Origin: an uncultured Veillonellaceae bacterium
GTDB taxonomy: Bacteria > Bacillota > Negativicutes > Selenomonadales > Selenomonadaceae
Assembly: GCA_900314825.1 (NCBI GenBank)
Contig: OMWS01000038.1
Span: forward strand, 1,200 to 65,199
Direction of reading: 5' to 3'
DNA: 64,000 nt
The notes beneath the pieces are model-generated. The model saw only the letters and a program-made list of their open reading frames with translations, was not told the DNA's origin and made no database searches. Positions within the stretch are counted from its first letter, which is position 1, and each line of letters begins with the position of its first letter. Made by a program: the position numbers and the translations under genes. Positions 33,005-51,687 of the stretch are shown here, piece after piece.

Positions 33005-33241
33005 ATGGCAAACATCAACAAAAACGAACTGACGAAAGAGCAAATCGAAAAGGCGATGGCCTGCGAGACCGCTGGGGAACTGATGGCGGCGGCAAAGGTC
33101 GAGGGCATCAATCTGACGAAGGACGAGGCCGAGGCGTACATGGCGGAGCTTGCCGATTTCGAGCTGGACGAGGCGACGCTTACACAGGCGGCGGGCGGCG
33201 GTTTTTCGCAATGGTCGGGTTGTCTCACTGTTCGCAAATAA
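33005..33241 (+). CDS. RiPP precursor A1 (Nif11-like leader, GG site); core GFSQWSGCLTVRK
   Basis: Leader MANINKNELTKEQIEKAMACETAGELMAAAKVEGINLTKDEAEAYMAELADFELDEATLTQAAGG. RBS GAGGAGG. Confidence 0.85.
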   Translation: MANINKNELTKEQIEKAMACETAGELMAAAKVEGINLTKDEAEAYMAELADFELDEATLTQAAGGGFSQWSGCLTVRK

Positions 33242-33289: not shown

Positions 33290-33544
33290 ATGGCAAACAT
33301 CAACAAGAACGAACTGACGAAGGAGCAGATCGAAAAGGCGATGGCGTGCGAGACCGCCGAGGAGCTGATGGCGGCGGCGAAAGCCGAGGGCATCGACCTG
33401 ACGCGGGACGAGGCGGAGGCATACATGGCGGAGCTTGCCGACTTTGAGCTGGACGATAAGACGTTGCAACAGGCGGCGGGGGGCATGAGCTACAGCGACT
33501 TTTTTGGGAAAGGCTGCCCTAACCTGAAGCTTAAAGGTTTCTAA
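33290..33544 (+). CDS. RiPP precursor A2; core MSYSDFFGKGCPNLKLKGF
   Basis: Near-identical leader ending QQAAGG. RBS GGGAGG. Confidence 0.85.
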   Translation: MANINKNELTKEQIEKAMACETAEELMAAAKAEGIDLTRDEAEAYMAELADFELDDKTLQQAAGGMSYSDFFGKGCPNLKLKGF

Positions 33545-33562: not shown

Positions 33563-33799
33563 ATGGCAAACATCAACGAAAACGAACTCACGAAAGAGCA
33601 GATCGCAAAGGCAATGGCCTGCGAGACCGCTGGGGAACTGATGGCGGCGGCAAAGGTCGAGGGCATCAATCTGACGAAGGACGAGGCCGAGGCGTATATG
33701 GCGGAACTTGCCGACTTCGAGCTGGATGAGGCGACGATGAAACAGGTGGCCGGAGGTTATTGCCATCGTACCTCGCCGTGCGGCAAGGTATTTTCCTAA
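33563..33799 (+). CDS. RiPP precursor A3; core YCHRTSPCGKVFS
   Basis: Near-identical leader ending KQVAGG. RBS ACGGAGG. Confidence 0.85.
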   Translation: MANINENELTKEQIAKAMACETAGELMAAAKVEGINLTKDEAEAYMAELADFELDEATMKQVAGGYCHRTSPCGKVFS

Positions 33800-33819: not shown

Positions 33820-34137
33820 ATGGCAAAGATAAACGAGAACGAACTGACAAAAGAACAAATCGAAAAGGCTATGGCTTGCGAAACCGCCGAGGAGCTGATG
33901 GCGCTGGCAAAGGCAGAGGGCGTCGAGCTCACGAAGGATGAGGCCGAGGCGTACATGGCGGAGCTGGCCGACTTCGAGCTGGACGAGGGGTCACTGAAAC
34001 AGGCGGCGGGCGGTACGCCCCCCGGAATAACCCTGATCTGCAAGAAACGAGATTTTCTGGAATGCGGCGGGCGGTACGCCCCCGGAATAATGCCCGGTAA
34101 GACCGCCTGCGGAGACAAGGGCAAAAGCAAATGGTAA
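33820..34137 (+). CDS. RiPP precursor A4; long, apparently chimeric core TPPGITLICKKRDFLECGGRYAPGIMPGKTACGDKGKSKW
   Basis: Leader MAKINENELTKEQIEKAMACETAEELMALAKAEGVELTKDEAEAYMAELADFELDEGSLKQAAGG. ATG 33820 follows ACGGAGG. See the finding on the internal duplication. Confidence 0.8.
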   Translation: MAKINENELTKEQIEKAMACETAEELMALAKAEGVELTKDEAEAYMAELADFELDEGSLKQAAGGTPPGITLICKKRDFLECGGRYAPGIMPGKTACGDKGKSKW

Positions 34138-34176: not shown

Positions 34177-35709
34177 ATGAGAAAAAGCATCTACGAGATA
34201 ATTCTGCCCTTGGTAGGGGAGGATGACAGGGAAATCGAGGGTAAAGCCCTGCTGGTGAACGGGCTGTATTCTTCTTTTGACGTAGTAGCAAAGGAAGAAG
34301 CGGAAAAATTCGCGGCGGGGGATTTTGCCGCCCTTCCCCTTGCCCTGCGGGAGCGGCTGCTCCTCCGGGGGCATCTCACCCGCAGGAGCGAGGCGGAGGA
34401 AATCGCCGACATGAAGCTCATGGGCCGTGTCTATCGCATGATTCCGGCCCGTGCAGGTCTGGGAGTTGTCATCATGCCCACCTACGACTGCAATTTCCGC
34501 TGCCCCTACTGCTTCGAGCAGCACAGGCTGAAAAAGGGGCAGGAGTGGCTCTCAAGCACCATGAGCCACGAGATGATCGAGGCGGTATTTGCCGCCATAG
34601 AGAATTACAAAGCCAGGGGGTACGCCCTTGGGGGCTGTACCCTCTACGGCGGCGAGCCTTTCCTGGCCGAAAACATCGATGTCCTGCGGGAAATTGCCGG
34701 GCACGCCCAAAAGCTCGGCCTCGCCCTGGACGCCGTCACCAATGGCTACGACCTTGAAGCCTATCTGGATTTTCTGGAGGAGTACGGCTGCAAGCAGCTT
34801 CAGGTGACGGTGGACGGCGTGGGGGAGATCAATGACCGTCGGCGCATCCATAAGGAGGGCCTGCCCACCTATGACCGCATACTGGGCAATGTGGAGCTTG
34901 CCCTGCAGCGGGGCATATCCATCAGCCTGCGGGTGAACGTGGGACGCGAAAATATCTCCGGCATGGGGGCGCTTATCGAAGACCTGCGGGAGCGGGGCTT
35001 CATAGACAAGGAGAAGAAGCGTGCAGTATTTTCCTATTACTTCAAGGCCACCAGCGATGACCGCCATCCCGAAAATAACATCACCGAGCAGGACATCATT
35101 GATGAGCTGAGGAAAAACGGCTTCACAGCCATGGAAGCCATCGGGCTGCAGAGCCAGTACAGCTTGCCGGAGGGGGCACTCAGGCAGATTTTTGCCAAGA
35201 AAGCGCTGCCCCAGCCCTCCCCTGCATACTGCGGCTCGGAGGGTGGGATGCTGGTCATCGACCCCTTCGGCAAGCTCTATCCTTGCTGGGATGTGGTGGC
35301 TACGGAGGGCACTGCCGTGGGCTTCACCGACCTGCAGTCGGGGCGTTTCCTGATGGGGCTCACAAAGGCGAAGTGGCGCACCCGCACTTCGGATCTCCTG
35401 CCCGCCTGTGAGACCTGCCCCTATGTGTTCATTTGCCGGGGCGGCTGCGCTTCCCGCGCCTTTGCCAGCCACGGGAGCTATTTCCGGGAATACTGCGGCG
35501 AGGCCAAGGAAATCTTCGCCTTTGTGGCTTCCCGGGTGGCGGGGGAGACCTGGGCGAAGAACCACGAGAGCGAGCTTTCCCTCTCTCTGGCTGGCCCTCT
35601 CTCCCGCCTGACGGAGGCGGAGCGCAGGACGCTTACAGAGTCCCGCAGCCAGAAGGAAATCTTTGATTGCCTCAAGGCGGCGGGACTTTGGGAGGAAAGC
35701 AGGAAATAA
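34177..35709 (+). CDS. radical SAM/SPASM peptide maturase (rSAM-1)
   Basis: MPTYDCNFRCPYCFE (CxxxCxxC), YGGEPF, and SPASM cysteines CGSEGGMLVIDPFGKLYPCWD...CETCPYVFICRGGCASRA. Paralog of the protein at 60229. Confidence 0.9.
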   Translation: MRKSIYEIILPLVGEDDREIEGKALLVNGLYSSFDVVAKEEAEKFAAGDFAALPLALRERLLLRGHLTRRSEAEEIADMKLMGRVYRMIPARAGLGVVIMPTYDCNFRCPYCFEQHRLKKGQEWLSSTMSHEMIEAVFAAIENYKARGYALGGCTLYGGEPFLAENIDVLREIAGHAQKLGLALDAVTNGYDLEAYLDFLEEYGCKQLQVTVDGVGEINDRRRIHKEGLPTYDRILGNVELALQRGISISLRVNVGRENISGMGALIEDLRERGFIDKEKKRAVFSYYFKATSDDRHPENNITEQDIIDELRKNGFTAMEAIGLQSQYSLPEGALRQIFAKKALPQPSPAYCGSEGGMLVIDPFGKLYPCWDVVATEGTAVGFTDLQSGRFLMGLTKAKWRTRTSDLLPACETCPYVFICRGGCASRAFASHGSYFREYCGEAKEIFAFVASRVAGETWAKNHESELSLSLAGPLSRLTEAERRTLTESRSQKEIFDCLKAAGLWEESRK

Positions 35710-35896: not shown

Positions 35897-36166
35897 ATGA
35901 ACACCAATGGCAAAGAAATCTCTAAGGAAATTATCGCCAAGGCAGTGGAGTGTGAAACCCCCGAAGAGCTGATGGAGCTGGCGGAAAGCGAGGGCATCGA
36001 ACTGACGAAGGATGAGGCCGAGGCGTACATCTCGGAGCTGGCGGACGCGGAGCTCACCGACGCGGAGCTGCAGCAGGTGGCGGGCGGCGATGATGAATGC
36101 AAAGGCTACTGGAAAGGATGCTATGGTCATTGCCCCCAGGTTAAACAGACGGGCGGCATATTTTAA
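35897..36166 (+). CDS. RiPP precursor B1; core DDECKGYWKGCYGHCPQVKQTGGIF
   Basis: Leader ...AVECETPEELMELAESEGIELTKDEAEAYISELADAELTDAELQQVAGG. Confidence 0.8.
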   Translation: MNTNGKEISKEIIAKAVECETPEELMELAESEGIELTKDEAEAYISELADAELTDAELQQVAGGDDECKGYWKGCYGHCPQVKQTGGIF

Positions 36167-36185: not shown

Positions 36186-36419
36186 ATGGCAAACATTAAC
36201 ATGAACGAACTCACCAAAGAGCAAATCGAAAAGGCAATGGGCTGTGAGACAGCCGAGGAACTGATGGCGGTGGCGAAGGCCGAGGGAATCGAGCTGACAA
36301 AGGAGGAGGCCGAGGCGTATCTGGCGGAGCTTTCCGACTTCGAGAATAATGCGGCGGGCGGCGGAAGGCATAGACCCCATCTTTGCCCTGGCAAAAAATC
36401 GAAAAATTCCTATTTATGA
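36186..36419 (+). CDS. RiPP precursor B2; core GRHRPHLCPGKKSKNSYL
   Basis: Leader MANINMNELTKEQIEKAMGCETAEELMAVAKAEGIELTKEEAEAYLAELSDFENNAAGG. Confidence 0.8.
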   Translation: MANINMNELTKEQIEKAMGCETAEELMAVAKAEGIELTKEEAEAYLAELSDFENNAAGGGRHRPHLCPGKKSKNSYL

Positions 36420-36460: not shown

Positions 36461-36705
36461 ATGGCAAACATTAACATGAACGAACTCACCAAAGAGCAAA
36501 TCGAAAAGGCAATGGGCTGCGAGACAGCCGAGGAACTGATGGCGGGGGAATCGAGCTGACAAAGGAGGAGGCCGAGGCGTATCTGGCGGAGCTTTCCGAC
36601 TTTGAGCTGGACGAGGCCACACTGAGGAATGCGGCGGGGGGCGAAGGCTGTTACACCCAAACGTGCACCTGCAGGTTTGAGGGCAAAAAGTTCCACATAG
36701 GCTGA
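36461..36705 (+). pseudogene. RiPP precursor B3, frameshifted by a 13-nt deletion in the leader
   Basis: Identical to B2 up to ...GAACTGATGGCGG, then lacks TGGCGAAGGCCGA. This creates a stop at 36557-36559. The -1 frame continues IELTKEEAEAYLAELSDFELDEATLRNAAGG-EGCYTQTCTCRFEGKKFHIG. Confidence 0.75.
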
Positions 36706-36751: not shown

Positions 36752-38605
36752 ATGAAGGTACAGGAACTTCCGGCCAAGGCGTTTCTTGCCCACCTGCGCC
36801 GTCATCCGCTCCCCGAGATCATGGACGAGGCATGCGATGCCGCCTTGTCTGCCGTTCTCGGGGAATATGGCGGCACCATTACTCACGGGGCGGGACTTGA
36901 GGTGCGCCTGGGGGAGGATGCGCGGTATGTTGATTTTATCATGTCCATCGACCATGATGATATTCCCCATGTTGAGGCGCTTTGGTATGAGATTGACTAT
37001 GGGGAATTCAAAAAAGCCCACGAGACGGGAACAAAGATCATGCCCTGCCTGTTTGCCAATACCGATTTCGGCAAGGACAGCAAGGAGAAATGGGATGAAT
37101 TCCTGCCGGTTTTTTTAGGCGAGGAGCGGGCTAGACGCCTGCGCCCCGCCTTTGATCGGGTGCTGGAGCATCTGCCGGAGGGGGCGTACCCCAAGCAGGT
37201 GGGCACCATGACGAGCCGGGGGGAGCTCCACATCATGCGCCTGGTGATTATATTCCCGGACTGGGATTCCATTCCCGAGGGACTTGTCGCCATTGGCTGG
37301 CAGGGGAACCCCGCAGGTCTCTGTGCTGCGTTCGAGCCATGGAGACAGACAGAACGTATCGCCGTCAATATCGACTTAGGCGAGAAGGGGGTACTGCCGA
37401 AAATCGGCATCGAGGTCTTTTCTCGCTGGCGGCATCCGCTGCTTGTGGATAAAGCCATCGCCCGTCTCGCGGATGCCGGGCTGTGCCTGCCGTCAAAAGC
37501 GGAGGCGCTTCGCCGCTGGATTCGGATTCGACCCGACGGCGACCCGTTTATCCAGACGCTGATTGCTTATTTCAAGCTGAACTACAAGGACGGTAAAATC
37601 ACCGAGGCGAAAGCGTATTTGGAGCAATCGCCCTACGTCCACCATCACTATTTTGATGCCTATGAGCGTCCCGTCTATGTGGAAATTATGGTGGCGAACC
37701 GGGAAAATACTCTTCCCATAGGCACGGCAATGAAGTGGCTCTACGAGTGCGCGGAAAACCGCATAGGCGAAGTGCGTTTTACGGGGGACGTTACGCGATA
37801 CGAACACCTTGACCGGCTGCTTAAGGAATGTAAACAAGAGAGCGACAACGAAGCAGGAAAAATCCGCGCCGTAGTGGAAATTACCAAGAGAGTATCGCCG
37901 ACGTGGCTTGAGAAGATAATCGCCGAGGGTGCGAAGGGCTTTATCGTTGATATCAACGGCGAAGCAGCAGCCGATGAATCGGCTCTTTGGACGCTGAAAA
38001 CCCTTCGTAACAAAGGAGGCAAAAATGTGCGGGCAAGATGGTTCATGCACTGCGGCAATGCCGAAAAACTGCCTCGGGTGATACGTCTTGCGGAAAAATC
38101 AGTCGTCGGGGAACTGATTATAACCGGCATGAAACCGGCGAAAAACAAAGAAATACCGACCCGCGAACAAATGCTTCAAGCGGCGGAGACGATAAAAAAG
38201 TGGCGAGAGAATCATCAAAAAACCGACGGCAACACGGAAAACAATGCCGTGCCGACGGCTTCCCCGGATGGCATGGCGCTGACGGTCGATAGCTGTTTCT
38301 CCCCGCTCCGCGCAATTTTAGCGGGCAAAGACCCGAAGAAAAACGGCAATCGCGGCATCGAGCGGGGCTGCACGGCGGGAAGGGATCATTTTTGCGTCCT
38401 GCCGTCGGGAAAAGTTACGCCCTGCCTGCATCTTGACTGCGCGGAGGACTGCGGCAGTCTTGCCGCATATTGGGACGAATCGCCCACGCTGAAAAAACTG
38501 CGCGACAATGATAACCGCGCCGAAAGTTGCAAGGCTTGCGCCTACAGGCGGCGTTGCTTGCCATGCCCTGCAATATCGGCATGTCCCGTCGGCGCGGAAG
38601 AATAA
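36752..38605 (+). CDS. fusion protein: uncharacterised five-hairpin domain (P-family) + radical-SAM-like barrel lacking CxxxCxxC + SPASM-like Cys cluster
   Basis: The N-terminal ~300 aa are collinear with the 56064, 58003 and 59127 proteins. The middle reads RPVYVEIMVANRENTL...EVRFTGD where rSAMs have CxxxCxxC...GGEP. The C-terminus is GCTAGRDHFCVLPSGKVTPCLHL...CKACAYRRRCLPC. Confidence 0.7.
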   Translation: MKVQELPAKAFLAHLRRHPLPEIMDEACDAALSAVLGEYGGTITHGAGLEVRLGEDARYVDFIMSIDHDDIPHVEALWYEIDYGEFKKAHETGTKIMPCLFANTDFGKDSKEKWDEFLPVFLGEERARRLRPAFDRVLEHLPEGAYPKQVGTMTSRGELHIMRLVIIFPDWDSIPEGLVAIGWQGNPAGLCAAFEPWRQTERIAVNIDLGEKGVLPKIGIEVFSRWRHPLLVDKAIARLADAGLCLPSKAEALRRWIRIRPDGDPFIQTLIAYFKLNYKDGKITEAKAYLEQSPYVHHHYFDAYERPVYVEIMVANRENTLPIGTAMKWLYECAENRIGEVRFTGDVTRYEHLDRLLKECKQESDNEAGKIRAVVEITKRVSPTWLEKIIAEGAKGFIVDINGEAAADESALWTLKTLRNKGGKNVRARWFMHCGNAEKLPRVIRLAEKSVVGELIITGMKPAKNKEIPTREQMLQAAETIKKWRENHQKTDGNTENNAVPTASPDGMALTVDSCFSPLRAILAGKDPKKNGNRGIERGCTAGRDHFCVLPSGKVTPCLHLDCAEDCGSLAAYWDESPTLKKLRDNDNRAESCKACAYRRRCLPCPAISACPVGAEE

Positions 38606-38625
38606 TGAAAAAGGAGAGAATTTTC

Positions 38626-38961
38626 ATGGCAAAAGAATTTACTCAGACAACCTCCGAAAGGCCGGGCGGCTGGACCGTCTGGCAGGTGACGGGGCGAATT
38701 GATGTGGCAACCTCCGATGATACCTATGCCAAGGGCGAGGAAATCGTGAAGGCCAAGGAGAAAATCGCCCTTGATATGTCGGAGCTGGAGTATTTCTCAA
38801 GCGCGGGGCTTCGCGTTATTTTGCGCCTCAACAAATTGGCCAAGAAATCCGGGCATGAGTTCACCGTCTGCGGGGCAAACGGCATGGTGAAGTCCGTTTT
38901 GGAAGACAGCGGCATGGACGTACTCTTAAAGGCGAAAGAATCGTTGGATGAGCTGTCGTGA
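38626..38961 (+). CDS. STAS-domain anti-sigma-factor antagonist (RsbV/SpoIIAA-like)
   Basis: ALDMSELEYFSSAGLRVILRLNKLAKKSGHEFTVCGANGMVKSVLEDSGM. ATG follows AAAGGAGAG. Confidence 0.8.
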   Translation: MAKEFTQTTSERPGGWTVWQVTGRIDVATSDDTYAKGEEIVKAKEKIALDMSELEYFSSAGLRVILRLNKLAKKSGHEFTVCGANGMVKSVLEDSGMDVLLKAKESLDELS

Positions 38962-38975
38962 CGTGAGGAGAAAAC

Positions 38976-39434
38976 ATGGAGCATTCCGATAATGCCGCAA
39001 ACATAAGAATTCCGGTCGGCGAGGACTGGCGGCGCTATGACGCTGAATTGGAATTTTACGAACGCATCAAGGAGGATATTCTCCAAGATGCCGAAGAGGC
39101 GGGAATGTCCCCGAAGCAGGAGTTTAAGCTGGAGCTTGGCATTGAGGAAATTGCCGTCAATATCATCAGCTACGCTTACAAAGATCCCGGCTATATGTTT
39201 ATCCGAACGAAGTCCGACGGCCGGCATTTTCGCCTTGAATTCGTCGATCACGGGGTGCCTTTCGACCCTCTGGTCCAAGCCATGAAACATGGGGAGATTC
39301 CCACCGACGACCAGGACGAAGGAGGCTACGGCATTTTCCTCGTGAAAAAGAATTTTTCTTCCGTTCTATATCGGCATGAGGAAATGTTCGGCAAAACGGC
39401 GAACCACCTCATAATGGAATTGCCCCTGTCATAA
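38976..39434 (+). CDS. anti-sigma regulatory Ser/Thr kinase (RsbW/SpoIIAB-like HATPase)
   Basis: LGIEEIAVNIISYAY...RLEFVDHGVPFDP...GGYGIFLVKK. Confidence 0.75.
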   Translation: MEHSDNAANIRIPVGEDWRRYDAELEFYERIKEDILQDAEEAGMSPKQEFKLELGIEEIAVNIISYAYKDPGYMFIRTKSDGRHFRLEFVDHGVPFDPLVQAMKHGEIPTDDQDEGGYGIFLVKKNFSSVLYRHEEMFGKTANHLIMELPLS

Positions 39435-39471
39435 AAGTTTCTGCGGGCAAACGGAAGGATTAAGGATTATC

Positions 39472-41661
39472 ATGGATAAATCGGCAAAGGGTTGGGGATT
39501 ACAAAATTTTTTTAAGAAAAGAAGATACGGCATAAGGAAACAAGTGCAACGGCTCATCTTCATCTGCAGTATCGTGGCTTTCTTCACGGTGAGCGTCATT
39601 GCCTTGGCCGGAATGTTTACGGCACGGCAAAACTCCATAACGGACGGCAACCAAATGGGCGAACTCGCCGCCGGGATTGCCGCCGACAAATTGAAAAATG
39701 CAGAAGAGCGGCGTCTTGCGCTCTTGACTCGCGAACAGACCAAGGAAATTCACTTGCAACTTCAGCGAATCGAAGATCGCGTGATGCTTTTGTCCGGCTG
39801 GGTGAGTTATATACTGGACAATCCCCATGAGTATTCGCCGCAACCTATTTCTTTCCCCCGGGCGGAAAATGTCGGCACAATTACGGCACAACTTGAACTT
39901 GCCCCCGATGCCGATTATGGCAAGCTGAAGGATTCCATAGAACTTGCCGCCAACGCCCAGACGTTAATGGTTCGTTTGTCGGACATCACCGGCGAGGGAA
40001 CGGTTGTCGCCCTCGGCTCCGAGGAAGGATTTTACTTTTCCGCCGACGATGAATCGGACAAGCATCTTACGGCCGACGGTCGGCCGATACTTTATGACGC
40101 AAGAACCAGACCTTGGTACAAAACGGCCAAAGCGGCGGGGACGTTGGTGTTTACCGGCGTGTACAACGATATGTACAGCGGCAAATTGCGCTTAGGTTGC
40201 GCCATGCCCTACTACAAAAACGGCGAATTCGGCGGGGTGGCGGATATTGCCTTCTACTTGGAAGAAATTGGTGAAGCTGTTTTACATTCCGAAACCGACA
40301 CTTGCTTCGTCGTTGACGACAGCGGGCGGCTGCTTTTCCTTAAGGACGATACCGGCATCTTTTCCGATATTACAATCGGGCAAACAAATATGCTCGATTT
40401 CGACAATAACGAATTAACCGACATTGTAAAGGCGATGATTGCCAAAGAGGACGGCATAAAATCCGTTTCCATTGACGGCAAGGACTACATCATCGCTTTT
40501 TCGCCCATTCCCGAAGTCGGCTGGAGTTTTGCCGCCGCCCTTGATGCTGCGGAAATTGTCAATACCCAAGAAACGGCGCGGCAGGAAGTTTTGGCCATCG
40601 CCAAAAAAAATGTTGACGATATGGACACTTTTATATCGCGCTTAATCGTTTTAATGATTATCGCGATTGTCATTTCCGTGTGGGCGCTTCGTAAAATCGG
40701 CTATGGCTTGGGCGGTCGCTTTGCCGAGCCGATTTTGGAACTGTCGGACGGCGTTCGCGAAATTGCCAGCGGCAACCTTGACAAGAAGCTTGATATAACA
40801 ACGGGCGACGAGATAGAGTATTTGGCGGTCTGCTTCAACGCCATGACGGACGAGCTGAAAGCATATATCGACAATTTGTCGCGGGTGACGGCGGAAAAGG
40901 AACGGGCGGCCGCCGAAATTTCCGTTGCCCACAACATTCAGGTGGGGGCGTTGCCGCAGGATTTTTTGACGGATCGCAAAGAATTTGAAATCTATGCGAC
41001 CATGGATGCCGCCAAGGGAGTGGGCGGTGATTTTTACGACTTTTACATGACGGACGAAAATCATCTCGCGGTGACCATCGCCGATGTGTCGGGCAAAGGC
41101 GTACCGGCGGCTCTCTACATGATGCGCGCCAAAACGACGCTTAAAAATCTTGTGACAATGGCAAATAATCCCGACGACTTTGCCGCCGTTATGACGCTGG
41201 CAAACCAAGAGCTGTGCCGGGAGAACGAGACGATGATGTTTGTCACGGTCTTTTTCGCCCAGCTTGATTTGACAACCGGCGAGCTTATCTACGTAAATGC
41301 CGGACACAATCCACCGGTTTTAAGTGAAAACGGCAACTTCCGCTATCTGACCCAAAAGAAGAAGCACATGATGCTCGGCGTGAACGAGGATGCTATGTAC
41401 GAGGCGCACCGCCTTACCATCTCCCCCGGCGATATGCTCTTTCTCTACACGGACGGCGTGACGGAGGCTATGGACAGCGACAAGAACCTTTATTCGGAGG
41501 ATCGGCTGGAAAAAACAATAAACAACGTGGGCGTCAGCCTTTCCGTGCAGGAAATCCTCGCCAATGTGCGAAAGGATATAGATGCTCACGCAAATGGTGC
41601 GGAGCAATCTGACGACATCACCATGCTGGGCGTGAAATTTTTTGGTAAAACAAATGTTTAA
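39472..41661 (+). CDS. membrane sensor PP2C phosphatase (Cache-like + HAMP + SpoIIE/RsbU domain)
   Basis: N-terminal TM segment; ~300-aa extracytoplasmic region; second TM segment; HAMP (AEPILELSDGVREIASGNLDKKLD..GDEIEYLAVCFNAMT); PP2C GGDFYDFYM...ADVSGKGVPAALYM...DDITMLGVKF. Confidence 0.8.
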   Translation: MDKSAKGWGLQNFFKKRRYGIRKQVQRLIFICSIVAFFTVSVIALAGMFTARQNSITDGNQMGELAAGIAADKLKNAEERRLALLTREQTKEIHLQLQRIEDRVMLLSGWVSYILDNPHEYSPQPISFPRAENVGTITAQLELAPDADYGKLKDSIELAANAQTLMVRLSDITGEGTVVALGSEEGFYFSADDESDKHLTADGRPILYDARTRPWYKTAKAAGTLVFTGVYNDMYSGKLRLGCAMPYYKNGEFGGVADIAFYLEEIGEAVLHSETDTCFVVDDSGRLLFLKDDTGIFSDITIGQTNMLDFDNNELTDIVKAMIAKEDGIKSVSIDGKDYIIAFSPIPEVGWSFAAALDAAEIVNTQETARQEVLAIAKKNVDDMDTFISRLIVLMIIAIVISVWALRKIGYGLGGRFAEPILELSDGVREIASGNLDKKLDITTGDEIEYLAVCFNAMTDELKAYIDNLSRVTAEKERAAAEISVAHNIQVGALPQDFLTDRKEFEIYATMDAAKGVGGDFYDFYMTDENHLAVTIADVSGKGVPAALYMMRAKTTLKNLVTMANNPDDFAAVMTLANQELCRENETMMFVTVFFAQLDLTTGELIYVNAGHNPPVLSENGNFRYLTQKKKHMMLGVNEDAMYEAHRLTISPGDMLFLYTDGVTEAMDSDKNLYSEDRLEKTINNVGVSLSVQEILANVRKDIDAHANGAEQSDDITMLGVKFFGKTNV

Positions 41662-44399: not shown

Positions 44400-44593
44400 G
44401 AGCAATTATGCAGGATTTTTATAGATTTTGAGCGAAATATAAGACAAAGTAATAGATATTATGCGATTTTAGGTCAGGTTCAACTCAATAGTTCAAGCAC
44501 AAACAGGGTTCCAATAGTGGGGAATAAAGCGTGCCCTCTTCCCCACATGTACTCGGGTGGTGTATGACATTTGGGAAATGTGAGGGAGACTGT

Positions 44594-45754
44594 ATGAAAA
44601 AATATTTTTTCGTGGGATTGGGGCTGGTGCTGGCTTTGACACTGCTGGTGGTTGCTTATGGCGCTTATCTGAATGAAAGGGGAGAAAGCCAGATTGCCCT
44701 GCGCATGGAGGAACGGCAAGCGGAGCTGATTGGTGAGAAAGCCGCAAGGAGAGCGTTTCATCCTCTGGTGAAGTTCTCTGCCGTCAATCTTTATACTGCC
44801 AGCATAGCGGATGCTGTGGCACTTACTGAGGGGCGGATTGTGGAGGCTTATGCTTCTGTCAACAGCTATGTTCACAAGGGTGATCTGCTTTTCAGGCTGG
44901 AAAATGATAACATCGCCCTTTCCATCCAGGAGGCTGAGGCGAGCATCATGAGCGCCAATGCTGAACTGGCCCGTGCCACCAACAATTATGACCGCTATAG
45001 CAAACTGCTGGAGTTTGATGCTGCCTCCAGCCAGCAGTTCGATGAAGCCAAGGCTGCCTATGTGGCGGCCCAGGCAAATTTGCAGGCGGCGGTAGCTAAG
45101 CGGGACATGCTGCTGGTAAATGAATCACGCTGCGAGGTCCGTGCACCTATCGATGGGACAGTGCGCATTATTTACCGACAGCCTGGAACCTACGTACCCA
45201 GTGGCACATCTCTGGCGCTTGTGGGGGATTATAACGAGCTTTATTTTTCCCATCAGGTCAGTGATGACAAGGCCCAAAGGTTGCAAGTGGGACAGGAGGC
45301 AGAGTTTATCTTCCCCGGCAGAGAGTTCAAGAATCTGGATGGGGCTCACGGAGACATGGGAACAGAGCAGGTCTTTCATGGTGTGCTGACGGAGATTGCC
45401 CCGCCCTTGGAGGTGCCGGGCGCAGCCCGCACCCTGCTCTGGCGGATAGATAATCCCTTGGGACTACTGACGCCCCAGACTTACGGCACGGCCTATTTGA
45501 AGCTGGTTCGGGGGGCAGAGGCTCTTTGTGTGCCCCTCTCCGCCCTTACGGACAAGACCAGGCAGACTGTTTTTGTCTACCGGGATGGAAAGCTTGAGCG
45601 CAGAGATGTTGTCACCGGCAGGGATGATGGGGATTATGTCGAGATACTTGGCGGGCTGGAGCCTGGGGAGATTGTCATTGTTTTTGGCACAGAGAATTTG
45701 CAGGATGGGCTAAAGGCAGAAGTAAAGCTGAGGGGTGAGCAGGATGTCAGATAA
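44594..45754 (+). CDS. HlyD/membrane-fusion family periplasmic adaptor
   Basis: N-terminal TM segment MKKYFFVGLGLVLALTLLVVAYG; lipoyl-like GDLLFRLEN; coiled-coil region; beta-barrel region CEVRAPIDGTV. ATG follows GAGGGAG. Confidence 0.75.
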   Translation: MKKYFFVGLGLVLALTLLVVAYGAYLNERGESQIALRMEERQAELIGEKAARRAFHPLVKFSAVNLYTASIADAVALTEGRIVEAYASVNSYVHKGDLLFRLENDNIALSIQEAEASIMSANAELARATNNYDRYSKLLEFDAASSQQFDEAKAAYVAAQANLQAAVAKRDMLLVNESRCEVRAPIDGTVRIIYRQPGTYVPSGTSLALVGDYNELYFSHQVSDDKAQRLQVGQEAEFIFPGREFKNLDGAHGDMGTEQVFHGVLTEIAPPLEVPGAARTLLWRIDNPLGLLTPQTYGTAYLKLVRGAEALCVPLSALTDKTRQTVFVYRDGKLERRDVVTGRDDGDYVEILGGLEPGEIVIVFGTENLQDGLKAEVKLRGEQDVR

Positions 45755-46721
45755 AGAAAAAAATCAGGCAGCAGGCAGTTTCTTCAGCCAGGCAGCCCTG
45801 GACAAGCTGCGTTCCCCGGAGAAACTGGACACCATGGTGCATATTACGGGGCCTATGGGCTGGATGGGGCTGGCCGCCGTCTGCATACTCTGCTTCTCCA
45901 TCGTCCTCTGGTCCATCTACGGTTCCTTTACAGAAAAGGCCGAGGGCATGGGGCTTATCATGGATGTCTCCGGGGTCAGGAGCGTTTCCCATGCTGCCTC
46001 AGGCCGCATTACGGACATTTATGTGAAAACCGGCAGCCATGTGCATGAGGGCCAGCTTATAGCCCATATGGAACAGCCGGAGCAGTCGGCGGATACCCGC
46101 ATGGCCCAGTACGGCACAGAACTGGCGGCCAACGACAGGGATGTGCAGTCCCGGGTCTACCAGTATGATGCCAAACGGCAGCAGCAGACAGCCAACGAGG
46201 ACATCTACTGCGAATATGACGGTATTGTGGACGAAGTCATGGCCTCTGAGGGTCAGATTCTTTCAGCAGGGGCTCCTATCTGTACGGTACGCCTGACCGA
46301 GGAGAGCAAAGACCTTTCAGGAATTTTCTATATTCCTGTGGACAAGGGCAAGCGGGTGGTGCCGGGCATGACTATCCAGCTGGCTCCCAATGGGGTGGAC
46401 GTGAGCCAGACCGGCAGCCTCCTGGGGGTAGTGGAGAGCGTCTCCCAGTATCCCATTTCCTCCGCCGGCATCGAAAAGGGCCTGGGCAATGCCCAGCTGG
46501 CCCAGTATGTGCTATCCAAAGACGGCGGGGCAGCGGTGGAGGTGAAATTCAGCCTGGTGAAGGATGCCTCCTCGGAATCCGGCTATCTATGGACTTCCGT
46601 GGTGGGTAAACATACGCCCATCACCCCGGGCAGCTACTGCACTGGGGCCGTAGTCATCGAGCGGAAGATGCCCATCGAGAAGGTATTTTACAAGATCAGC
46701 CAGTGGCTAAGGAGCAGGTAG
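45744..46721 (+). CDS. NHLM/Nif11-type bacteriocin secretion protein (HlyD-like)
   Basis: FFSQAALDKLRSPEKLDTMVHIT, a TM segment, then GRITDIYVKTGSHVHEGQLIA. It sits directly before the two ABC genes, the order recalled for the TIGR03794/96/97 trio. Confidence 0.7.
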   Translation: MSDKEKNQAAGSFFSQAALDKLRSPEKLDTMVHITGPMGWMGLAAVCILCFSIVLWSIYGSFTEKAEGMGLIMDVSGVRSVSHAASGRITDIYVKTGSHVHEGQLIAHMEQPEQSADTRMAQYGTELAANDRDVQSRVYQYDAKRQQQTANEDIYCEYDGIVDEVMASEGQILSAGAPICTVRLTEESKDLSGIFYIPVDKGKRVVPGMTIQLAPNGVDVSQTGSLLGVVESVSQYPISSAGIEKGLGNAQLAQYVLSKDGGAAVEVKFSLVKDASSESGYLWTSVVGKHTPITPGSYCTGAVVIERKMPIEKVFYKISQWLRSR

Positions 46722-46722
46722 C

Positions 46723-48948
46723 ATGGGGATAAAAGCATGGGAGACTTTGAAAAATAAATACTTTCCCCAGGGCCGCCGAGCCAAGACCCCCACAGTGCTC
46801 CAGATGGAGGCGGTGGAGTGCGGTGCGGCATCGCTTGCCATGGTGCTGGCCTATTACGGCAAATGGCTGCCTCTGGAGCGCTTGCGCCAGGAGTGCGGGG
46901 TTACCCGGGACGGCAGCAATGCCGCCAATATATTGAAGGCAGCCCGCAGGCTGGGCTGTGAGGCCAAGGGTAAGGCAGGAAGGGCCAAAGGCCTTCTGAA
47001 GCAGGATTTTCCCCTGATTCTTTTCTGGGAGTTCAACCATTTTGTGGTCATGGAAGGCTTCAAGGGAGAGACTGTTTTTTTGAACGACCCAGCTATGGGC
47101 AAGCGAAGTGTGCCCTGGCAGGATTTTATTTCCTCATACACTGGGGTGTATCTGCAGATTGCCCCCGGCCCTGATTTCAAGCGGGAGGGACACCCTTACA
47201 GCATTGCCAAGGCTGTGGCCTCAAAGCTCATGCAGGACAAGTGGGCGATGCTCTTTCTGTTGATTCTTGGCCTCTGCATGGTGTTGCCGGGACTGGCGGA
47301 ACCTGCCTTTAACCAGATTTTCATTGACGATATTTTTTCCATGAAGCATCCGGACTGGACCCAGTACCTGCTGCTGGCCATGGGCGGGGCGATTCTTCTG
47401 AACGGCATCATGACTGCCATGCGGGCCTCTGTCCTGCTGGGCTGGCAGAAGAAGCTGACCCTGGCGGATTCCTCCGCCTTCTTCTGGCATGTCCTGCGGC
47501 TGCCCATCACTTTTTTTCAGCAGCGGTTTGCCGGGGAGATTGCCTCCCGCATCCAGTTCAACGAGAGCAACGCAGATGTGCTCTCCGACCAGGCGGCAAC
47601 CTCCCTGCTGGACTGCCTGATTGCCATTTTCTACCTGTTGCTCCTGCTCTCCTACAGCGTGCCTCTTACCTTGATCGGCGTTTCTATCAGCGCCGTGAAT
47701 GTCTTTGTCTTTTTCTATATGCGGCGCAATATGACAGACATCATGATGCACATGCAGCAGGAAAAGGGCAAGGAGTACGGCACCCTCATGTCGGGACTGA
47801 TGATGATTGAGAGCATCAAGGCCAGCGGCACAGAGGGGGACTTCTTTGCCAAATGGGCAGGCTATCAGGCCAAAGGCCTCATGGCCATGCAGAAAATGCA
47901 GTTCTGGTCCCTGAAGGTGAAGCTGCTGCCCACTCTGCTGTCGGGGCTTACCAGCGCCATGGTCATGGCCGTGGGGGGCTTCTCTGTTATGGAAGGGGTC
48001 ATGACTGCCGGTATGTATATGGCGGTTTCCAATCTACTGCCCAAGTTTCAGGAACCTATGAACAAGCTGCTGGCTTTCGGCAATACGCTGCAAACCACAG
48101 AAATGCAGATGCGTCGCCTGGATGATGTGTGGCGCTATGGGATTGACAGGCTGAACTATCCTGAAAAGCCGGTCCCCATGGAAGAAGGGAGCCTACGTCT
48201 GACAGGACAGCTGGAGCTGAAGGACTTGAGCTTTGGCTACAATCCTCTGGAACCGCCCCTGCTGGAGCATTTTGACCTTACCCTGGCCCCCGGGCAGTGG
48301 GCGGCGGTGGTGGGTTCTTCCGGCAGCGGCAAGTCCACCCTGGCCAAGGTGGTGGCAGGGCTCTATGAGGAATGGTCAGGAGAGGTGCTGCTGGATGGCA
48401 AAAGGCGGCGGGAGTTTCCCAGGGAGGCCATCGTCGGCTCCATGGCCATCGTAGACCAGGACGTGTTTCAGATAACGGGAACTGTGGCAGAGAATATTTC
48501 CTTTTTCGACAAGTCTCTGCCCAAGGAGGACATCATGAGAGCAGCCCAGGATGCATGCATACATGAGGACATCCTGAAGCTGAACGGGGGCTATGAGGCC
48601 CAGGTGGCCGAGGGAGGGCTGAACTTCTCCGGCGGCCAGCGGCAGAGGATGGAAATCGCCCGGGCCCTGGCGGGGAATCCCTCCCTGTTGATTCTGGACG
48701 AGGCCACCAGTGCCATCGACCCATTGACGGAGCAGGTCATTCTGAAGAATATCCGCCGCAGAGGCTGCGCCTGCCTGCTGGTGGCCCACCGCCTTTCCAC
48801 CATTCGGGAGGCTGATGAGATCATCGTGCTGGAGTATGGCAAAATCGTGCAGCGGGGCACTCACCGGGAGCTTATAGCAGAGGATGGTCCTTACCGCCGT
48901 CTGGTGGAAGAGCGTGAGGCAGAGGAAGATACAGAGTCTCTGGACTAA
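46723..48948 (+). CDS. peptidase-C39-domain ABC transporter (PCAT; leader-cleaving exporter)
   Basis: C39 active-site region TVLQMEAVECGAASLAMVLAYYG; six-TM ABC core; Walker A GSSGSGKST; signature FSGGQRQR; Walker B LLILDEATSAID. Confidence 0.9.
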   Translation: MGIKAWETLKNKYFPQGRRAKTPTVLQMEAVECGAASLAMVLAYYGKWLPLERLRQECGVTRDGSNAANILKAARRLGCEAKGKAGRAKGLLKQDFPLILFWEFNHFVVMEGFKGETVFLNDPAMGKRSVPWQDFISSYTGVYLQIAPGPDFKREGHPYSIAKAVASKLMQDKWAMLFLLILGLCMVLPGLAEPAFNQIFIDDIFSMKHPDWTQYLLLAMGGAILLNGIMTAMRASVLLGWQKKLTLADSSAFFWHVLRLPITFFQQRFAGEIASRIQFNESNADVLSDQAATSLLDCLIAIFYLLLLLSYSVPLTLIGVSISAVNVFVFFYMRRNMTDIMMHMQQEKGKEYGTLMSGLMMIESIKASGTEGDFFAKWAGYQAKGLMAMQKMQFWSLKVKLLPTLLSGLTSAMVMAVGGFSVMEGVMTAGMYMAVSNLLPKFQEPMNKLLAFGNTLQTTEMQMRRLDDVWRYGIDRLNYPEKPVPMEEGSLRLTGQLELKDLSFGYNPLEPPLLEHFDLTLAPGQWAAVVGSSGSGKSTLAKVVAGLYEEWSGEVLLDGKRRREFPREAIVGSMAIVDQDVFQITGTVAENISFFDKSLPKEDIMRAAQDACIHEDILKLNGGYEAQVAEGGLNFSGGQRQRMEIARALAGNPSLLILDEATSAIDPLTEQVILKNIRRRGCACLLVAHRLSTIREADEIIVLEYGKIVQRGTHRELIAEDGPYRRLVEEREAEEDTESLD

Positions 48949-48978
48949 CCAAAGAGCCTTGAGGAGTTGAGGGTATAG

Positions 48979-51687
48979 ATGAAACTTTTAGCAGGTCAGC
49001 GCACGAAGCTCATGGAGGCGGGCAGGGCTCTTCTGGTGAAGCAGGGCAGGGTAGAGGCTTATGCCCTGATGGAGGAGGGGGGCCACCGTCTCTTCCTGAT
49101 GGAGCTGGAGCCGGGGGAAGCGGCGTTCCATTCTGCTGATGAATTCGGGGACATTACCATAGAGGTGTATGCCCTGGAGGATGCAGCGTTGGAGGAGCTG
49201 TCCCTGGCGGAAGAGCAGGCAGGGACATTAGTGCCCCTGATGCGTCACTGGTTCCAGGAGCTTATCTGCCTGCCCTGGCTGCGCCTGATGGCCGACCGGG
49301 GAGATGAATTCCTGAGAGCCTGGGTGGATGGCTCGGTACTGAGGCAGGCGGGGCAGCAGACAGAAAATCTGCTGGAGGAGTTTGAAGAAAACCAGGGTAT
49401 TTTTGCCATGCTGGCAGGGGTTCGCTTTGCTGCCCAGGATGAAAGGCTGGCTCGCCGCCTGATGGCCCGCAGGAGACATAAGCGCCGCTTGCTGGACGAG
49501 ACCGTGGCCAATCTCTTGGGGGAGGACTGGGTCTCGGTGTCCGGCAGTGGCCAGGGCAGCGCCAAACTGGAAGAGGCCGTCTTTCTGGTGCGGGCCGTGG
49601 CCCATCATCTGGGCATGCCCGAGGAAGACATTGCCCTGAACAAGGAGACGGTAGAAAAGCTGGATGCTTTGGGGGTGCTGCGCCGTCTGGTGGCCAAGGG
49701 CGGCATGGAGATGCGCCTGATAAAGCTGGAAAAGGGTTGGGAAGGCTGGGATTGCGGGGCCATGCTGGGGTATTTCGGCGAGAAGAAACAGCTGGCAGCC
49801 CTGCTGCCCGAATCACCTTCCAGCTACAAGCTGGTGACCAGGGAAAATATGGAGGGTGTGACCCTAACCTCCGAAATGGCCCATAGTGTTTCAGGAGATG
49901 CTTTCCTGGTCTATCCGGGACTGCCGGACAGAAAAATGGGACGGCTGGACTTCCTGCGCTTTATGGCGCGCCATACTTGGCAGACGGACTGGAAGGCCGT
50001 CCTTCTGGCAGGGCTCTTTATGGGGCTTATCCCCCTGCTCACGCCCATAGTCACGGAGACCATGTTCCAGGACCTCATTCCCATCCTGGACCGCAAGGGG
50101 CTGGCCACGGTGACCCAGGTGGTGCTGGTGGCGGGCTTTACCACAGCGGCGCTAACTACAGTGCGCGCCCTGGCTGTGTTGCGCCTGACAGCTATGGGGA
50201 ATCTGCGGGGGCAGGCGGCCCTTTTCGGGCGGCTATTGAAGCTGCCGCCGGGCTTTTTCCGCCGCTTCCAGTCGGGAGAGCTGGCGGAGAGAATGCAGGG
50301 ACTGGACAGGTCTGTCATGCTTCTTACCAGCGAGTCCGTGGGAGCGCTGCTCTCCTTTGCCTGTTCCTTCTGGAGCCTGGGGCTGATGTGCTATTACAGC
50401 ATGAAGCTTACGGGGATGGCCCTTTTGGTCTGGCTGGTCTACCTGGCCATTTCAATTTTCCTGCTCTACCGGCTGACCAGGGCCCAGCGGGATATGACCA
50501 CGGCCAGCAACAAGACCTCCGGCATTCTGGCCCAAATCTTCGCAGGCCTGGCCAAGTTCCGCACCAAGGGTTCAGAGGAACAGGCCTACCACCTCTGGGG
50601 ACAGCAGTTTGCCATTGAATTGGGCCATAATATCCGGGCGCGCCGCCTGAAGAATATCAGCACGGTCATAGCGGCCATGCAGCCCATGCTGCTGACACTT
50701 ATCCTTTACTATAATGGCCTGCTGGAGCTTGCCACTTCCCAGAGTGGCGGCGGGACTGCTGCCGAGGCACTGGGTCTAGGTGCCAAGCCCATGACGGCAG
50801 CCACCTTCATCGCCTTTCAGTCTGCTTTCACCGCTTTCAACACTTCTTTGGTGGCTATTATGCCCATTTTGGAAGGCATGTCTGTCATCAAGCCCTACTT
50901 GGATAATCTCCTGCCCATCTTGGAGGAGATGCCTGAGACCTCCGAGGAGAGGCAGGAAGCCGGCGTGCTTTCCGGGGCCATCGAGGTGAGGAATCTTACT
51001 TTCGGCTACGTGCCGGAGAGCAGGGTGCTGGATGATGTGAGTTTTCGCATCGCTGCAGGAGAGCAGGTGGCCATTGTGGGAAAATCCGGCTGCGGCAAGT
51101 CCACCCTGATTCGCCTGCTGCTGGGCTTTGAGATGCCCCGGCAGGGAGCCGTCTACTATGACGGCCAGGACCTTTCGGAGCTTTCCCTGCCCTCGGTGCG
51201 CTCCCAGATGGGAGTGGTGCTGCAGAATGGGCAGCTCATGAGCGGCGACATCCTGCACAACATTATCGGCACTAATAACCTTACTCTGGATGATGCCTGG
51301 GAGGCGGCAGAGGCGGCAGGCATTGCCGAAGATATCCGCCAGATGCCCATGCAGATGAACACCATCGTCAGCGAAGGCAGCACCAATATTTCCGGTGGGC
51401 AGCGCCAGCGCATCTTGATTGCCAGGGCCCTGGCATTGAAGCCTTCCATCATCGTCTGCGACGAGGCCACCAGCGCTTTGGATAACCGCACCCAGGCCAT
51501 TGTGACCAAGAGCCTGGACAAGCTCCATGCCACCCGCATCATCGTGGCTCACCGTCTGTCCACCATCCGTCATGCAGACAGGATTATCGTGCTGGACAAA
51601 GGCCGCATTGCCGAAACCGGCAGTTTCCAGGAACTGGTGGATAAGGGCGGACTCTTTGCCTCTTTCGTGAAGCGGCAGGTGGCCTGA
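48979..51687 (+). CDS. second ABC transporter of the NHLM-type export system (long N-terminal domain, no C39 Cys motif seen)
   Basis: ~330-aa N-terminal extension; TM domain; Walker A GKSGCGKST; ISGGQRQR; IIVCDEATSALD. Confidence 0.85.
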   Translation: MKLLAGQRTKLMEAGRALLVKQGRVEAYALMEEGGHRLFLMELEPGEAAFHSADEFGDITIEVYALEDAALEELSLAEEQAGTLVPLMRHWFQELICLPWLRLMADRGDEFLRAWVDGSVLRQAGQQTENLLEEFEENQGIFAMLAGVRFAAQDERLARRLMARRRHKRRLLDETVANLLGEDWVSVSGSGQGSAKLEEAVFLVRAVAHHLGMPEEDIALNKETVEKLDALGVLRRLVAKGGMEMRLIKLEKGWEGWDCGAMLGYFGEKKQLAALLPESPSSYKLVTRENMEGVTLTSEMAHSVSGDAFLVYPGLPDRKMGRLDFLRFMARHTWQTDWKAVLLAGLFMGLIPLLTPIVTETMFQDLIPILDRKGLATVTQVVLVAGFTTAALTTVRALAVLRLTAMGNLRGQAALFGRLLKLPPGFFRRFQSGELAERMQGLDRSVMLLTSESVGALLSFACSFWSLGLMCYYSMKLTGMALLVWLVYLAISIFLLYRLTRAQRDMTTASNKTSGILAQIFAGLAKFRTKGSEEQAYHLWGQQFAIELGHNIRARRLKNISTVIAAMQPMLLTLILYYNGLLELATSQSGGGTAAEALGLGAKPMTAATFIAFQSAFTAFNTSLVAIMPILEGMSVIKPYLDNLLPILEEMPETSEERQEAGVLSGAIEVRNLTFGYVPESRVLDDVSFRIAAGEQVAIVGKSGCGKSTLIRLLLGFEMPRQGAVYYDGQDLSELSLPSVRSQMGVVLQNGQLMSGDILHNIIGTNNLTLDDAWEAAEAAGIAEDIRQMPMQMNTIVSEGSTNISGGQRQRILIARALALKPSIIVCDEATSALDNRTQAIVTKSLDKLHATRIIVAHRLSTIRHADRIIVLDKGRIAETGSFQELVDKGGLFASFVKRQVA

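Follow-up and report, generated by a model that had tools for sequence, protein, structure and literature searches.

A gene on the forward strand at positions 36752..38605 of a 64,000-nucleotide stretch of DNA from an uncultured Veillonellaceae bacterium (contig OMWS01000038.1; the whole stretch is called the window here) encodes a protein that joins a predicted prenyltransferase-type domain to a degenerate radical S-adenosylmethionine (SAM) barrel and a SPASM domain. On balance it is probably a two-module tailoring protein of a Nif11-type pathway for peptides that are made on the ribosome and modified after translation (RiPPs), in which a prenyltransferase (PT) is coupled to a dead radical SAM (rSAM)/SPASM part that serves as an iron-sulfur (Fe-S) docking or electron-relay module. 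The original prediction had divided the protein into an N-terminal domain, an rSAM-type barrel, and a SPASM domain, and this architecture is borne out by a structural model, Foldseek searches, and profile comparisons. The list of open reading frames (ORFs), the homologues, and the model all describe one continuous protein with an alpha-beta-beta-alpha (ABBA)-like domain, a pseudo-rSAM barrel, and SPASM.

The ORF is real, and its full-length form is kept in rumen Negativicutes. It begins with ATG, has a GGGGGA stretch about 11 nt upstream of the start, and encodes 617 amino acids; the product is 100% identical to one database protein. There are 221 homologues, and the best 120 of the 221 are almost all near full length. 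Those with names belong to Selenomonas, Schwartzia, and Acidaminococcaceae and are annotated as hypothetical or as SPASM domain-containing. The survey of its distribution that had been suggested was carried out on one genome per GTDB species and yielded 40 loci with the fusion. Most of these are in rumen or gut Selenomonadaceae, Schwartzia, Succiniclasticum, and Acidaminococcaceae, and a few are in metagenome-assembled genomes labelled Spirochaetia, Lachnospiraceae, or Bacteroidales. Gene context was surveyed in 43 loci of relatives, many of them on short contigs, and the N-terminal domain and the C-terminal part form a single ORF in all 43 where the contig permits.

The middle of the protein (residues 308-505, 37673..38266) has the predicted fold of a radical SAM half-barrel without the motifs for SAM chemistry. 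An AlphaFold (AF2) model of the fusion was built from a 27-sequence alignment, with a predicted local distance difference test score (pLDDT) of 82.3 and a predicted template modelling score (pTM) of 0.61. In the model, the ABBA barrel (residues 1-307) is followed by six beta/alpha units (residues 309-492) and then by the SPASM part. The best Foldseek matches of the C-terminal half in the PDB are SuiB (E-value 8e-10), PqqE, BlsE, MoaA, CteB, TigE, and SkfB; the values for SuiB, PqqE, and CteB are in the range of 1e-9 to 1e-6. The family profile matches PqqE (6c8v) with an E-value of 1.4e-4, and positions 313-481 fall on PqqE residues 49-236, the barrel just past the cysteine motif. A hidden Markov model (HMM) of the middle domain matches relatives that bear the SAM-cluster motif with E-values of 1e-12 to 1e-29. 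A partial (beta/alpha)6 barrel and homology to bona fide members of the radical SAM superfamily are thus indicated by the model, by Foldseek, and by the PqqE profile. The three-cysteine motif that marks the superfamily, CX3CX2C, is absent from the entire 617-residue protein, which has cysteines at positions 28, 99, 191, 245, 333, 360, 434, 515, 540, 548, 558, 563, 567, 593, 596, 602, 605, and 611, and the protein has no match to the Pfam Radical_SAM model (PF04055).

The alignment with motif-bearing relatives shows how the motifs were lost. The active sequence NLELTxRCPLxCPQCYCDLxxGKDLPL stands opposite VEIMVAN--------------RENTLPI in the window protein, and the gap of about 14 residues at V308-T320 corresponds to deletion of the whole CX3CX2C cluster loop. 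The beta-1 strand and the stump of the loop, VYVEIMVANRENT, are left at residues 308-320 (37673..37711). RFTGD at residues 342-346 (37775..37789) lies opposite the SAM-binding LSGGE of the active relatives, with LSGGET against RFTGDV over the longer stretch, and the alignment with the PqqE HMM likewise places vrllGd opposite vhlsGGEp. The GGE-type motif that follows beta-2 is therefore missing, and within RFTGD only G345 is invariant. The barrel has just three invariant residues among 27 homologues, C333, G345, and G459. The original prediction that the middle region is rSAM-like without its cysteine triad, and that EVRFTGD replaces GGEP, agrees with the PqqE profile, the Foldseek matches, and the loop deletion. 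It would have failed if the alignment had revealed another complete SAM-cluster motif or a middle region without the rSAM fold; no such motif was seen, and the fold is present in the model. With the SAM-cluster loop gone and no GGE motif left, the module in the window lineage appears no longer able to cleave SAM. Origin as a recent duplicate of the neighboring rSAM gene at 34177-35709 was rejected, since tblastn of the fusion within the window gave no match to that gene. The C-terminal half also finds families of the PqqE, NirJ2, and AhbD type and not the best families of the neighboring maturase.

Loss of the SAM-cluster motif is combined with retention of the SPASM cysteines, as had been proposed: the protein has no CX3CX2C, and eight cysteines are conserved across its homologues. 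The SPASM domain takes up residues 506-617 (38267..38602). The Pfam SPASM model matches residues 540-596 with an E-value of 5.5e-4 and 20.6 bits, against a cut-off of 21.5, and NCBIfam searches give matches to the SPASM ends of NirJ2 and AhbD. The eight cluster cysteines are C515, C540, C558, C593, C596, C602, C605, and C611. Five of them (C515, C540, C558, C602, and C605) are invariant among the 27 homologues, and C593, C596, and C611, together with G553, are conserved in at least 90%. Their arrangement, C515; C540-x12-G553-x4-C558; C593-x2-C596-x5-C602-x2-C605; C611, follows the SPASM pattern of CX9-15GX4C, CX2CX5CX3C, and a final cysteine with one further cysteine upstream, except that the last spacing is x2 and not x3. 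The CxxCx5CxxC spacing given in the original prediction is correct for C593-C605, but its upstream spacing of C-x9-C-x10-C was slightly off, the actual one being C540-x7-C548-x9-C558. In the alignment the SPASM cysteines of the active and degenerate groups line up. Selection still appears to act on the SPASM domain, which therefore probably continues to bind two auxiliary [4Fe-4S] clusters. Within the family of the window protein, the N-terminal domain has a mean pairwise identity of 69%, the barrel one of 37%, and SPASM one of 51%, as would fit an enzyme that is live, a barrel that is relaxed, and a cluster domain that remains constrained.

Sequence comparison indicates that the window protein arose by degeneration of an active fusion, because relatives at a greater distance share the fusion but have CPL[RH]CPQC intact. 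The motif lies directly past the N-terminal domain in P0186, P0188, P0190, P0193, P0194, P0196, P0210, and P0224, and LSGGET is present in the motif-bearing relatives whose sequence reaches far enough. The three that were scanned (P0188, P0194, and P0224) match Pfam Radical_SAM with E-values of about 1e-16 to 3e-18. The original prediction needs correction here: the auxiliary-cluster domain and the enzyme were not joined de novo, and the other members of the wider fusion family keep both motifs. In a neighbor-joining (NJ) tree the degenerate clade of the window protein is monophyletic, and the motif-less P0197, P0208, and P0212 branch with the active clade. This tree, which has no bootstrap support, hints that the motif was lost more than once.

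Several relatives also provide indirect support for prenyl transfer. P0188 (810 amino acids) and P0197 (778 amino acids) end in a type-1 isopentenyl pyrophosphate (IPP) isomerase (NF002995, 144 and 146 bits, respectively, against a cut-off of 127), and an IPP isomerase is fused to or adjoins the fusion in all four distinct active-clade loci. The Nif11-like precursors of four active-clade loci (L045, L046, L048, and L050) all end in Trp (9 of 9), often as RRW and otherwise as GVRW, HNW, LPW, or HQW. Among the neighbors in the active clade are DUF7005 and a peptide arginase (PF12640), a family that is the subject of PMC12703449. Because Trp-ending precursors, a peptide arginase, and IPP isomerase are found side by side, these loci suggest a family of products containing ornithine and prenyl-Trp, undescribed in the literature found. 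The FlmR/OhkR lead was set aside, as it concerns the peptide arginases that neighbor the active-clade fusions and not the fusion itself. DUF7005 recurs as a neighbor of the fusion, in the active clade as well as in the degenerate one (L002, 12131-12964; L046, 12420-13280; L048, 2563-3357), and in P0194, from Treponema sp., it is fused at the N-terminus of the fusion (residues 4-255). The window showed no DUF7005 gene, and no relevant literature was found on this family.

For the N-terminal domain (residues 1-307, 36752..37672), which the original prediction had left as an unknown "P-domain", the predicted fold is that of an ABBA (PT-barrel) domain of the prenyltransferase type. According to DSSP of the AF2 model, it has ten strands in five alpha-alpha-beta-beta units, and the predicted fold is thus the 10-strand antiparallel barrel that characterizes ABBA proteins. 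Foldseek matches of this half are PriB (E-value 8e-6), TleC, 5-DMATS, FgaPT2, and AnaPT, with a probability of 1.00 for the first four. Residues that are invariant or nearly so in the superfamily are E50, D61, E80, D82, R156, R163, D208, G219, K249, K275, K287, and Y289. An i/i+2 spacing of the conserved residues is seen in several strands and probably puts them on one face of each strand. By the same strand periodicity, the basic and Tyr residues that are conserved throughout the superfamily (R156, R163, K249, K275, K287, and Y289) would point into the barrel.

The domain falls in a large superfamily associated with RiPPs for which neither Pfam nor NCBIfam has a model. A search of 1.84 billion representative proteins with the N-terminal domain profile gave 1162 clusters at E-values of at most 1e-3 and 244 at E-values of at most 1e-10. 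Many members are stand-alone proteins of about 300 or 340-400 amino acids, including proteins of Pleurocapsa and many other cyanobacteria, Ruegeria, and Actinocrinis. Three distant stand-alone members are all encoded in RiPP clusters: beside Nif11 precursors and LanM in Pleurocapsa, beside an NHLP precursor and a LanM/cyclase fusion in Actinocrinis, and beside a C39-peptidase ATP-binding cassette (ABC) transporter (PCAT) and YcaO/TfuA in Ruegeria. In P0279 the domain is coupled to a region like squalene-hopene cyclase. The named members are called hypothetical protein, save fused forms named after a 2-oxoglutarate (2OG)-Fe(II) oxygenase domain. In cyanobacteria many members carry this oxygenase domain at the C-terminus (P0242, P0352, P0357, P0360, and others), under the database names 2OG-Fe(II) oxygenase or proline 4-hydroxylase. 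The combination of an ABBA-like domain with a 2OG-Fe(II) oxygenase is another undescribed fusion of the N-terminal domain.

The profile match, the HMM matches, and the shared predicted ABBA fold indicate that the window encodes four members of this superfamily. Besides the fusion, three stand-alone paralogues, the P proteins, are encoded on the forward strand at about 56064-57125, 58003-59103, and 59127-60152. They match one another in BLASTP with E-values of 1e-76 to 1e-18 and have no Pfam or NCBIfam match. Direct comparisons of the N-terminal domain with the window ORFs by tblastn, BLASTP, an HMM of close homologues, and shallow hhalign (P = 0.08) gave nothing significant. When a deeper profile of 35 superfamily sequences (A5) was compared with the P-family profile (A3), hhalign gave a probability of 96.9% and an E-value of 2e-10 across 298 columns. 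Among 541 window ORFs, the A5 HMM likewise ranks the three P ORFs highest apart from self matches, and the P-family HMM matches 11 of the 148 N-terminal domain representatives tested. An AF2 model of the second P paralogue (Pb) has a pLDDT of 91 and a pTM of 0.90, and its Foldseek matches at E-values of at most 0.001 are exclusively aromatic prenyltransferases (NphB/Orf2, CymD, DMATS1, AmbP1, MpnD, and TleC). The homology of residues 1 to about 300 with the P proteins, which had been read from the sequence alone, thus holds at the level of deep profiles and predicted fold. The P genes are part of a second RiPP gene set (52623-62086), with rSAM genes at 52623-54179, 54697-56046, and 60142-61773 and Nif11-like precursors at 57263-57481 and 57548-57793, between the first and second P paralogues, and at 61850-62086. 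In this set the prenyltransferase-like and rSAM functions are on separate proteins; in the gene at 36752 they are fused.

The fusion gene is in a Nif11-type RiPP cluster, as precursors with GG leaders, a maturase, and a C39 ABC exporter are all found at one locus. Four Nif11-like precursors with GG leaders, identified from their ORFs, tblastn of the leaders, and their cores, are encoded on the forward strand at 33005-33241, 33290-33544, 33563-33799, and 33820-34137. They are followed by the rSAM/SPASM peptide maturase at 34177..35709 (forward strand), which has 510 amino acids, an intact CNFRCPYC motif, and a Pfam Radical_SAM match of 8.6e-19. Its best NCBIfam matches are TIGR04463, CefB, PapB, and nif11 maturases, all below the cut-off. 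It is ranthipeptide-like and the likely catalytic partner of the fusion. Three further precursors, recognized from ORFs and leader tblastn, are directly upstream of the fusion on the same strand (35897-36166, 36186-36419, and 36461-36642). The original prediction was right that the fusion follows three precursors, but the third is frameshifted. Its leader resumes in another frame at about 36547, and it is either a pseudogene or a sequencing error. The export genes are on the forward strand at 44531..51687 and encode two HlyD-type adaptors, the C39-peptidase ABC transporter (PCAT, at 46723), and a second ABC transporter (Pfam). The same four export genes are found in the loci of many relatives.

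The surveyed loci have similar contents and encode small cores rich in Cys and aromatic residues. Of the 43 loci, 18 have an rSAM gene of the 34177 type within 10 kb of the fusion; 23 have a leader-type precursor, and 18 have a PCAT. Of 56 precursor ORFs that were extracted, 50 have W, Y, or F in the core, and Cys makes up 11.5% of core residues. The cores of the degenerate clade are short and Cys-rich, and two motifs recur in them, C-Y-x3-4-C (TCYMVDGC and GCYSDC, for example) and W-C-x2-C (WCGDC and WCPGDC). The motifs are seen in L038-L041, L004, L008, L009, L013, and L014 as well as in the window precursors, with the aromatic residue beside the first Cys, and they may mark the sites of cross-linking and prenylation.

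These findings are consistent with a pathway in which the fusion and the maturase act on the same peptides. The first module (residues 1-307) would transfer a prenyl group, from dimethylallyl pyrophosphate or a longer donor, to an aromatic side chain of the core peptides; the most likely acceptor would be Trp in the Cys- and Trp/Tyr-rich cores encoded around the fusion. The second module (residues 308-617) would come from an active rSAM/SPASM peptide maturase that was already fused to the first module in the ancestor. It may now be a noncatalytic Fe-S module that holds the precursor peptide for the prenyltransferase, or it may instead dock with the intact maturase at 34177-35709 and relay electrons to it. 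The role put forward in the original prediction, a peptide-binding or redox partner of the P-domain, is plausible. The maturase would perform radical cross-linking, and the C39-ABC exporter would cut the leader at the GG site and export the product. We infer the prenyl transfer, the acceptor residue, the Fe-S binding, and the role of the second module from the combined evidence above. A more specific version, possible though doubtful, is that the pseudo-rSAM is an Fe-S adaptor that holds the Cys-rich core or shuttles electrons, and so couples cross-linking and prenylation in one complex. If so, it would be a first case of a pseudo-radical-SAM protein that handles substrate or electrons as a subunit serving two different enzymes, within a previously unrecognized prenyltransferase-rSAM fusion family that is widespread in anaerobes.

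Several observations weigh against a prenyltransferase coupled to a working Fe-S module. The N-terminal domain has no match in Pfam or NCBIfam or to PDB sequences, even with the A5 profile, which found no prenyltransferase among all PDB sequences. In the Pfam and NCBIfam scans, the domain and its stand-alone relatives fall outside every described prenyltransferase family. As no family is matched at the sequence level, it is the predicted fold that links the domain to prenyltransferases, and its Foldseek TM-scores are moderate (about 0.5). Neither the window nor any of the 44 degenerate-clade loci has an IPP isomerase. Trp is present in 32 of the 56 degenerate-clade cores and so is not universal. 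The relative placement of the two modules is undefined in the fusion model because the pTM is only 0.61. Finally, P0313, a close stand-alone N-terminal domain of 304 amino acids, is found in an rSAM/Nif11 precursor/N-terminal domain arrangement without the pseudo-rSAM. Since a stand-alone protein seems to work in the same type of cluster, the second module may be dispensable or decaying.

The first two of these observations fit a different reading, which is unlikely. The N-terminal domain would be an ABBA barrel without prenyltransferase activity, a binder of Nif11/NHLP leaders or a catalyst of other chemistry, and the fusion would be a scaffold that presents substrates to maturases. Every sampled context has a long Nif11/NHLP leader and a PCAT, while the maturase varies (rSAM, LanM, or YcaO/TfuA), and the lack of IPP isomerase in the loci of the window clade and of any sequence match to characterized prenyltransferases also favors it. 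However, the charged set of E, D, D, R, R, D, K, K, K, and Y lies on successive strands and is fully or almost invariant across phyla, which suits an active site better than a binding surface. The IPP isomerase fused to two relatives, and fused or adjacent in each of the active-clade loci, and the restriction of the P-protein model to aromatic prenyltransferases in Foldseek also point to prenyl transfer.

It is somewhat less likely again that the pseudo-rSAM/SPASM part is a relic with no role of its own beyond folding or stability, so that the protein is a prenyltransferase with a dead appendage that is being lost. The poorly conserved barrel with its few invariant residues, the arrangement around P0313, and the repeated motif loss suggested by the unsupported NJ tree are as expected for a relic. 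The SPASM domain behaves differently. Its eight cysteines and G553 are kept in homologues down to 47% overall identity, and its sequence identity is clearly above that of the barrel. The module is also full length in all 43 surveyed loci where the contig permits, an outcome that neutral decay would not lead one to expect.

The genes that follow the fusion raise a further alternative, which is very improbable. The forward strand at 38527..41661 encodes a STAS protein, an anti-sigma-type kinase (HATPase_c_2), and a Cache/HAMP/SpoIIE phosphatase (Pfam), which together make up a partner-switching module. The fusion could be mainly regulatory, for example an Fe-S redox sensor for this module. The same trio adjoins the fusion in L001, L002, and L004, STAS, HATPase_c_2, and SpoIIE genes also adjoin it in L030 and L044, and the trio is near active relatives in L046 and L048; L002 has no precursor or rSAM gene within 10 kb. 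In many other loci, though, an rSAM maturase and precursors immediately precede the fusion, and the sequence that is available shows no partner-switch genes. The N-terminal domain superfamily is also widespread in RiPP clusters without these regulators, and the IPP isomerase fusions point to metabolism.

Least probable of all is that the module is a working radical SAM enzyme with its cluster on noncanonical cysteines: a few rSAM enzymes do use motifs other than CX3CX2C and C333 is invariant in the clade, but the whole loop is deleted and not substituted, the barrel cysteines are just C333, C360, and C434 with only C333 invariant, the GGE motif is lost, and the Pfam Radical_SAM match seen in motif-bearing relatives is absent. 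A noncanonical SAM cluster was accordingly rejected as a candidate, on the loop deletion, the cysteine conservation, and the lack of CX3CX2C.

The surroundings of the cluster include other metabolic genes and signs of rearrangement. Downstream of the partner-switching module are an acetolactate decarboxylase (41676-42515, Pfam) and an FAD oxidoreductase (PF12831, 42529-44013) with an in-frame stop. A TAA at 43048-43050 splits the oxidoreductase into 42529-43050 and 43072-44013 in the same frame. It is probably a pseudogene, and not a case of selenocysteine because the codon is TAA and not TGA. Upstream, an OEP/TolC-type ORF of 241 amino acids (32260-32985, Pfam) ends where the precursor array starts and looks truncated, as if an insertion or rearrangement had occurred. 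Just upstream of the cluster is a patch of mobile elements (26605-31066). It includes a 509-residue RRXRR and HNH protein, presumably with the domain pair of IscB-type nucleases, a transposase of the PD-(D/E)XK family (28659-29609), and an OrfB/TnpB-type protein of IS605 whose TNB domain is Cas12f-like (29960-31066).

The fusion defines a family in which an ABBA-type, probably peptide-prenylating domain is covalently joined to an rSAM/SPASM maturase, and the N-terminal domain superfamily spans RiPP clusters of several phyla. Each of its ingredients has been described before, from ABBA peptide prenyltransferases and rSAM/SPASM maturases to pseudo-rSAM proteins and Nif11 RiPP clusters. What appears to be new is the covalent ABBA-type and rSAM/SPASM fusion and the degenerate form described here; no paper on a prenyltransferase-rSAM fusion or on "pseudo-rSAM" was found in the searchable literature, and the fusion matches no curated family model in Pfam or NCBIfam. 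Because active and dead rSAM versions are found in one family, they provide a natural experiment on the role of the barrel and SPASM without SAM chemistry, one that could separate peptide binding, electron relay, or nothing. The clusters predict prenylated peptides with thioether-type cross-links from rumen Negativicutes. They may also be a source of new leader-dependent peptide prenyltransferases for lipopeptide engineering.

The second module resembles known rSAM/SPASM maturases and known pseudo-rSAM proteins, and differs from both. Like SuiB, CteB, PqqE, PapB, TigE, and SkfB, it has a predicted (beta/alpha)6 barrel with SPASM, is homologous to them, shows the cluster-cysteine pattern, and is found in RiPP clusters. 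Unlike them, it has lost the CX3CX2C loop and the GGE motif, and the fusion has no N-terminal RiPP recognition element; the prenyltransferase-like domain is in its place. An auxiliary cluster of PapB mediates an obligatory intermolecular electron transfer, and the role of auxiliary SPASM clusters has been described as largely enigmatic (PMC10470005). The original prediction knew of no described function for an auxiliary-cluster domain that lacks the SAM-cleaving cluster, is covalently linked to a second putative enzyme, and comes right after three precursors. Proteins of the rSAM type without the SAM cluster do have precedents: NCBIfam includes, as pseudo-rSAM, the families TIGR04150 (GG-Bacteroidales system) and TIGR04347 (pseudo-SAM/SPASM, Halo). 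Judging by the family names, they are also rSAM-like without the SAM-cluster cysteines and associated with peptide systems, and TIGR04347 also keeps the SPASM domain. The fusion belongs to neither: TIGR04347 gives no match, and the TIGR04150 score is 12.1 bits where the cut-off is 250. The names and models of the two families indicate that, unlike the fusion, they are not joined to a second enzyme.

The first module is most like peptide prenyltransferases of the ABBA type. It shares a predicted 10-strand PT barrel, with conserved basic and Tyr residues on the barrel strands, with NphB/Orf2, CymD, PriB, TleC, DMATS, AmbP1, and cyanobactin prenyltransferases such as PagF. It has no detectable sequence similarity to the solved ABBA enzymes, whose substrates are small molecules or cyclic peptides without leaders and which, unlike it, are not fused to Fe-S domains. 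A closer parallel may be MppC of Moorena producens, a leader-dependent ABBA-type prenyltransferase that geranylates Trp of the Nif11-leader lanthipeptide precursor MppE (core ACWRWSG) and whose family colocalizes with Nif11, NHLP, and LanM genes (PMC12715784). Membership of the N-terminal domain in the MppC family is a lead that comes from likeness in gene neighborhood and description, not from the MppC sequence; no Moorena protein was among the 102 homologues of a cyanobacterial superfamily member. Both are soluble proteins of the alpha-beta-beta-alpha type, by prediction for the N-terminal domain, encoded beside precursors with Nif11 leaders and GG cleavage sites, and the MppE core resembles the Cys/Trp cores of the window clade. 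As in the MppC-like family, distant stand-alone members of the superfamily are also beside Nif11/NHLP precursors and LanM. MppC, however, is a stand-alone protein that works with LanM, whereas the domain of the fusion is joined to a dead rSAM/SPASM module beside an rSAM maturase.

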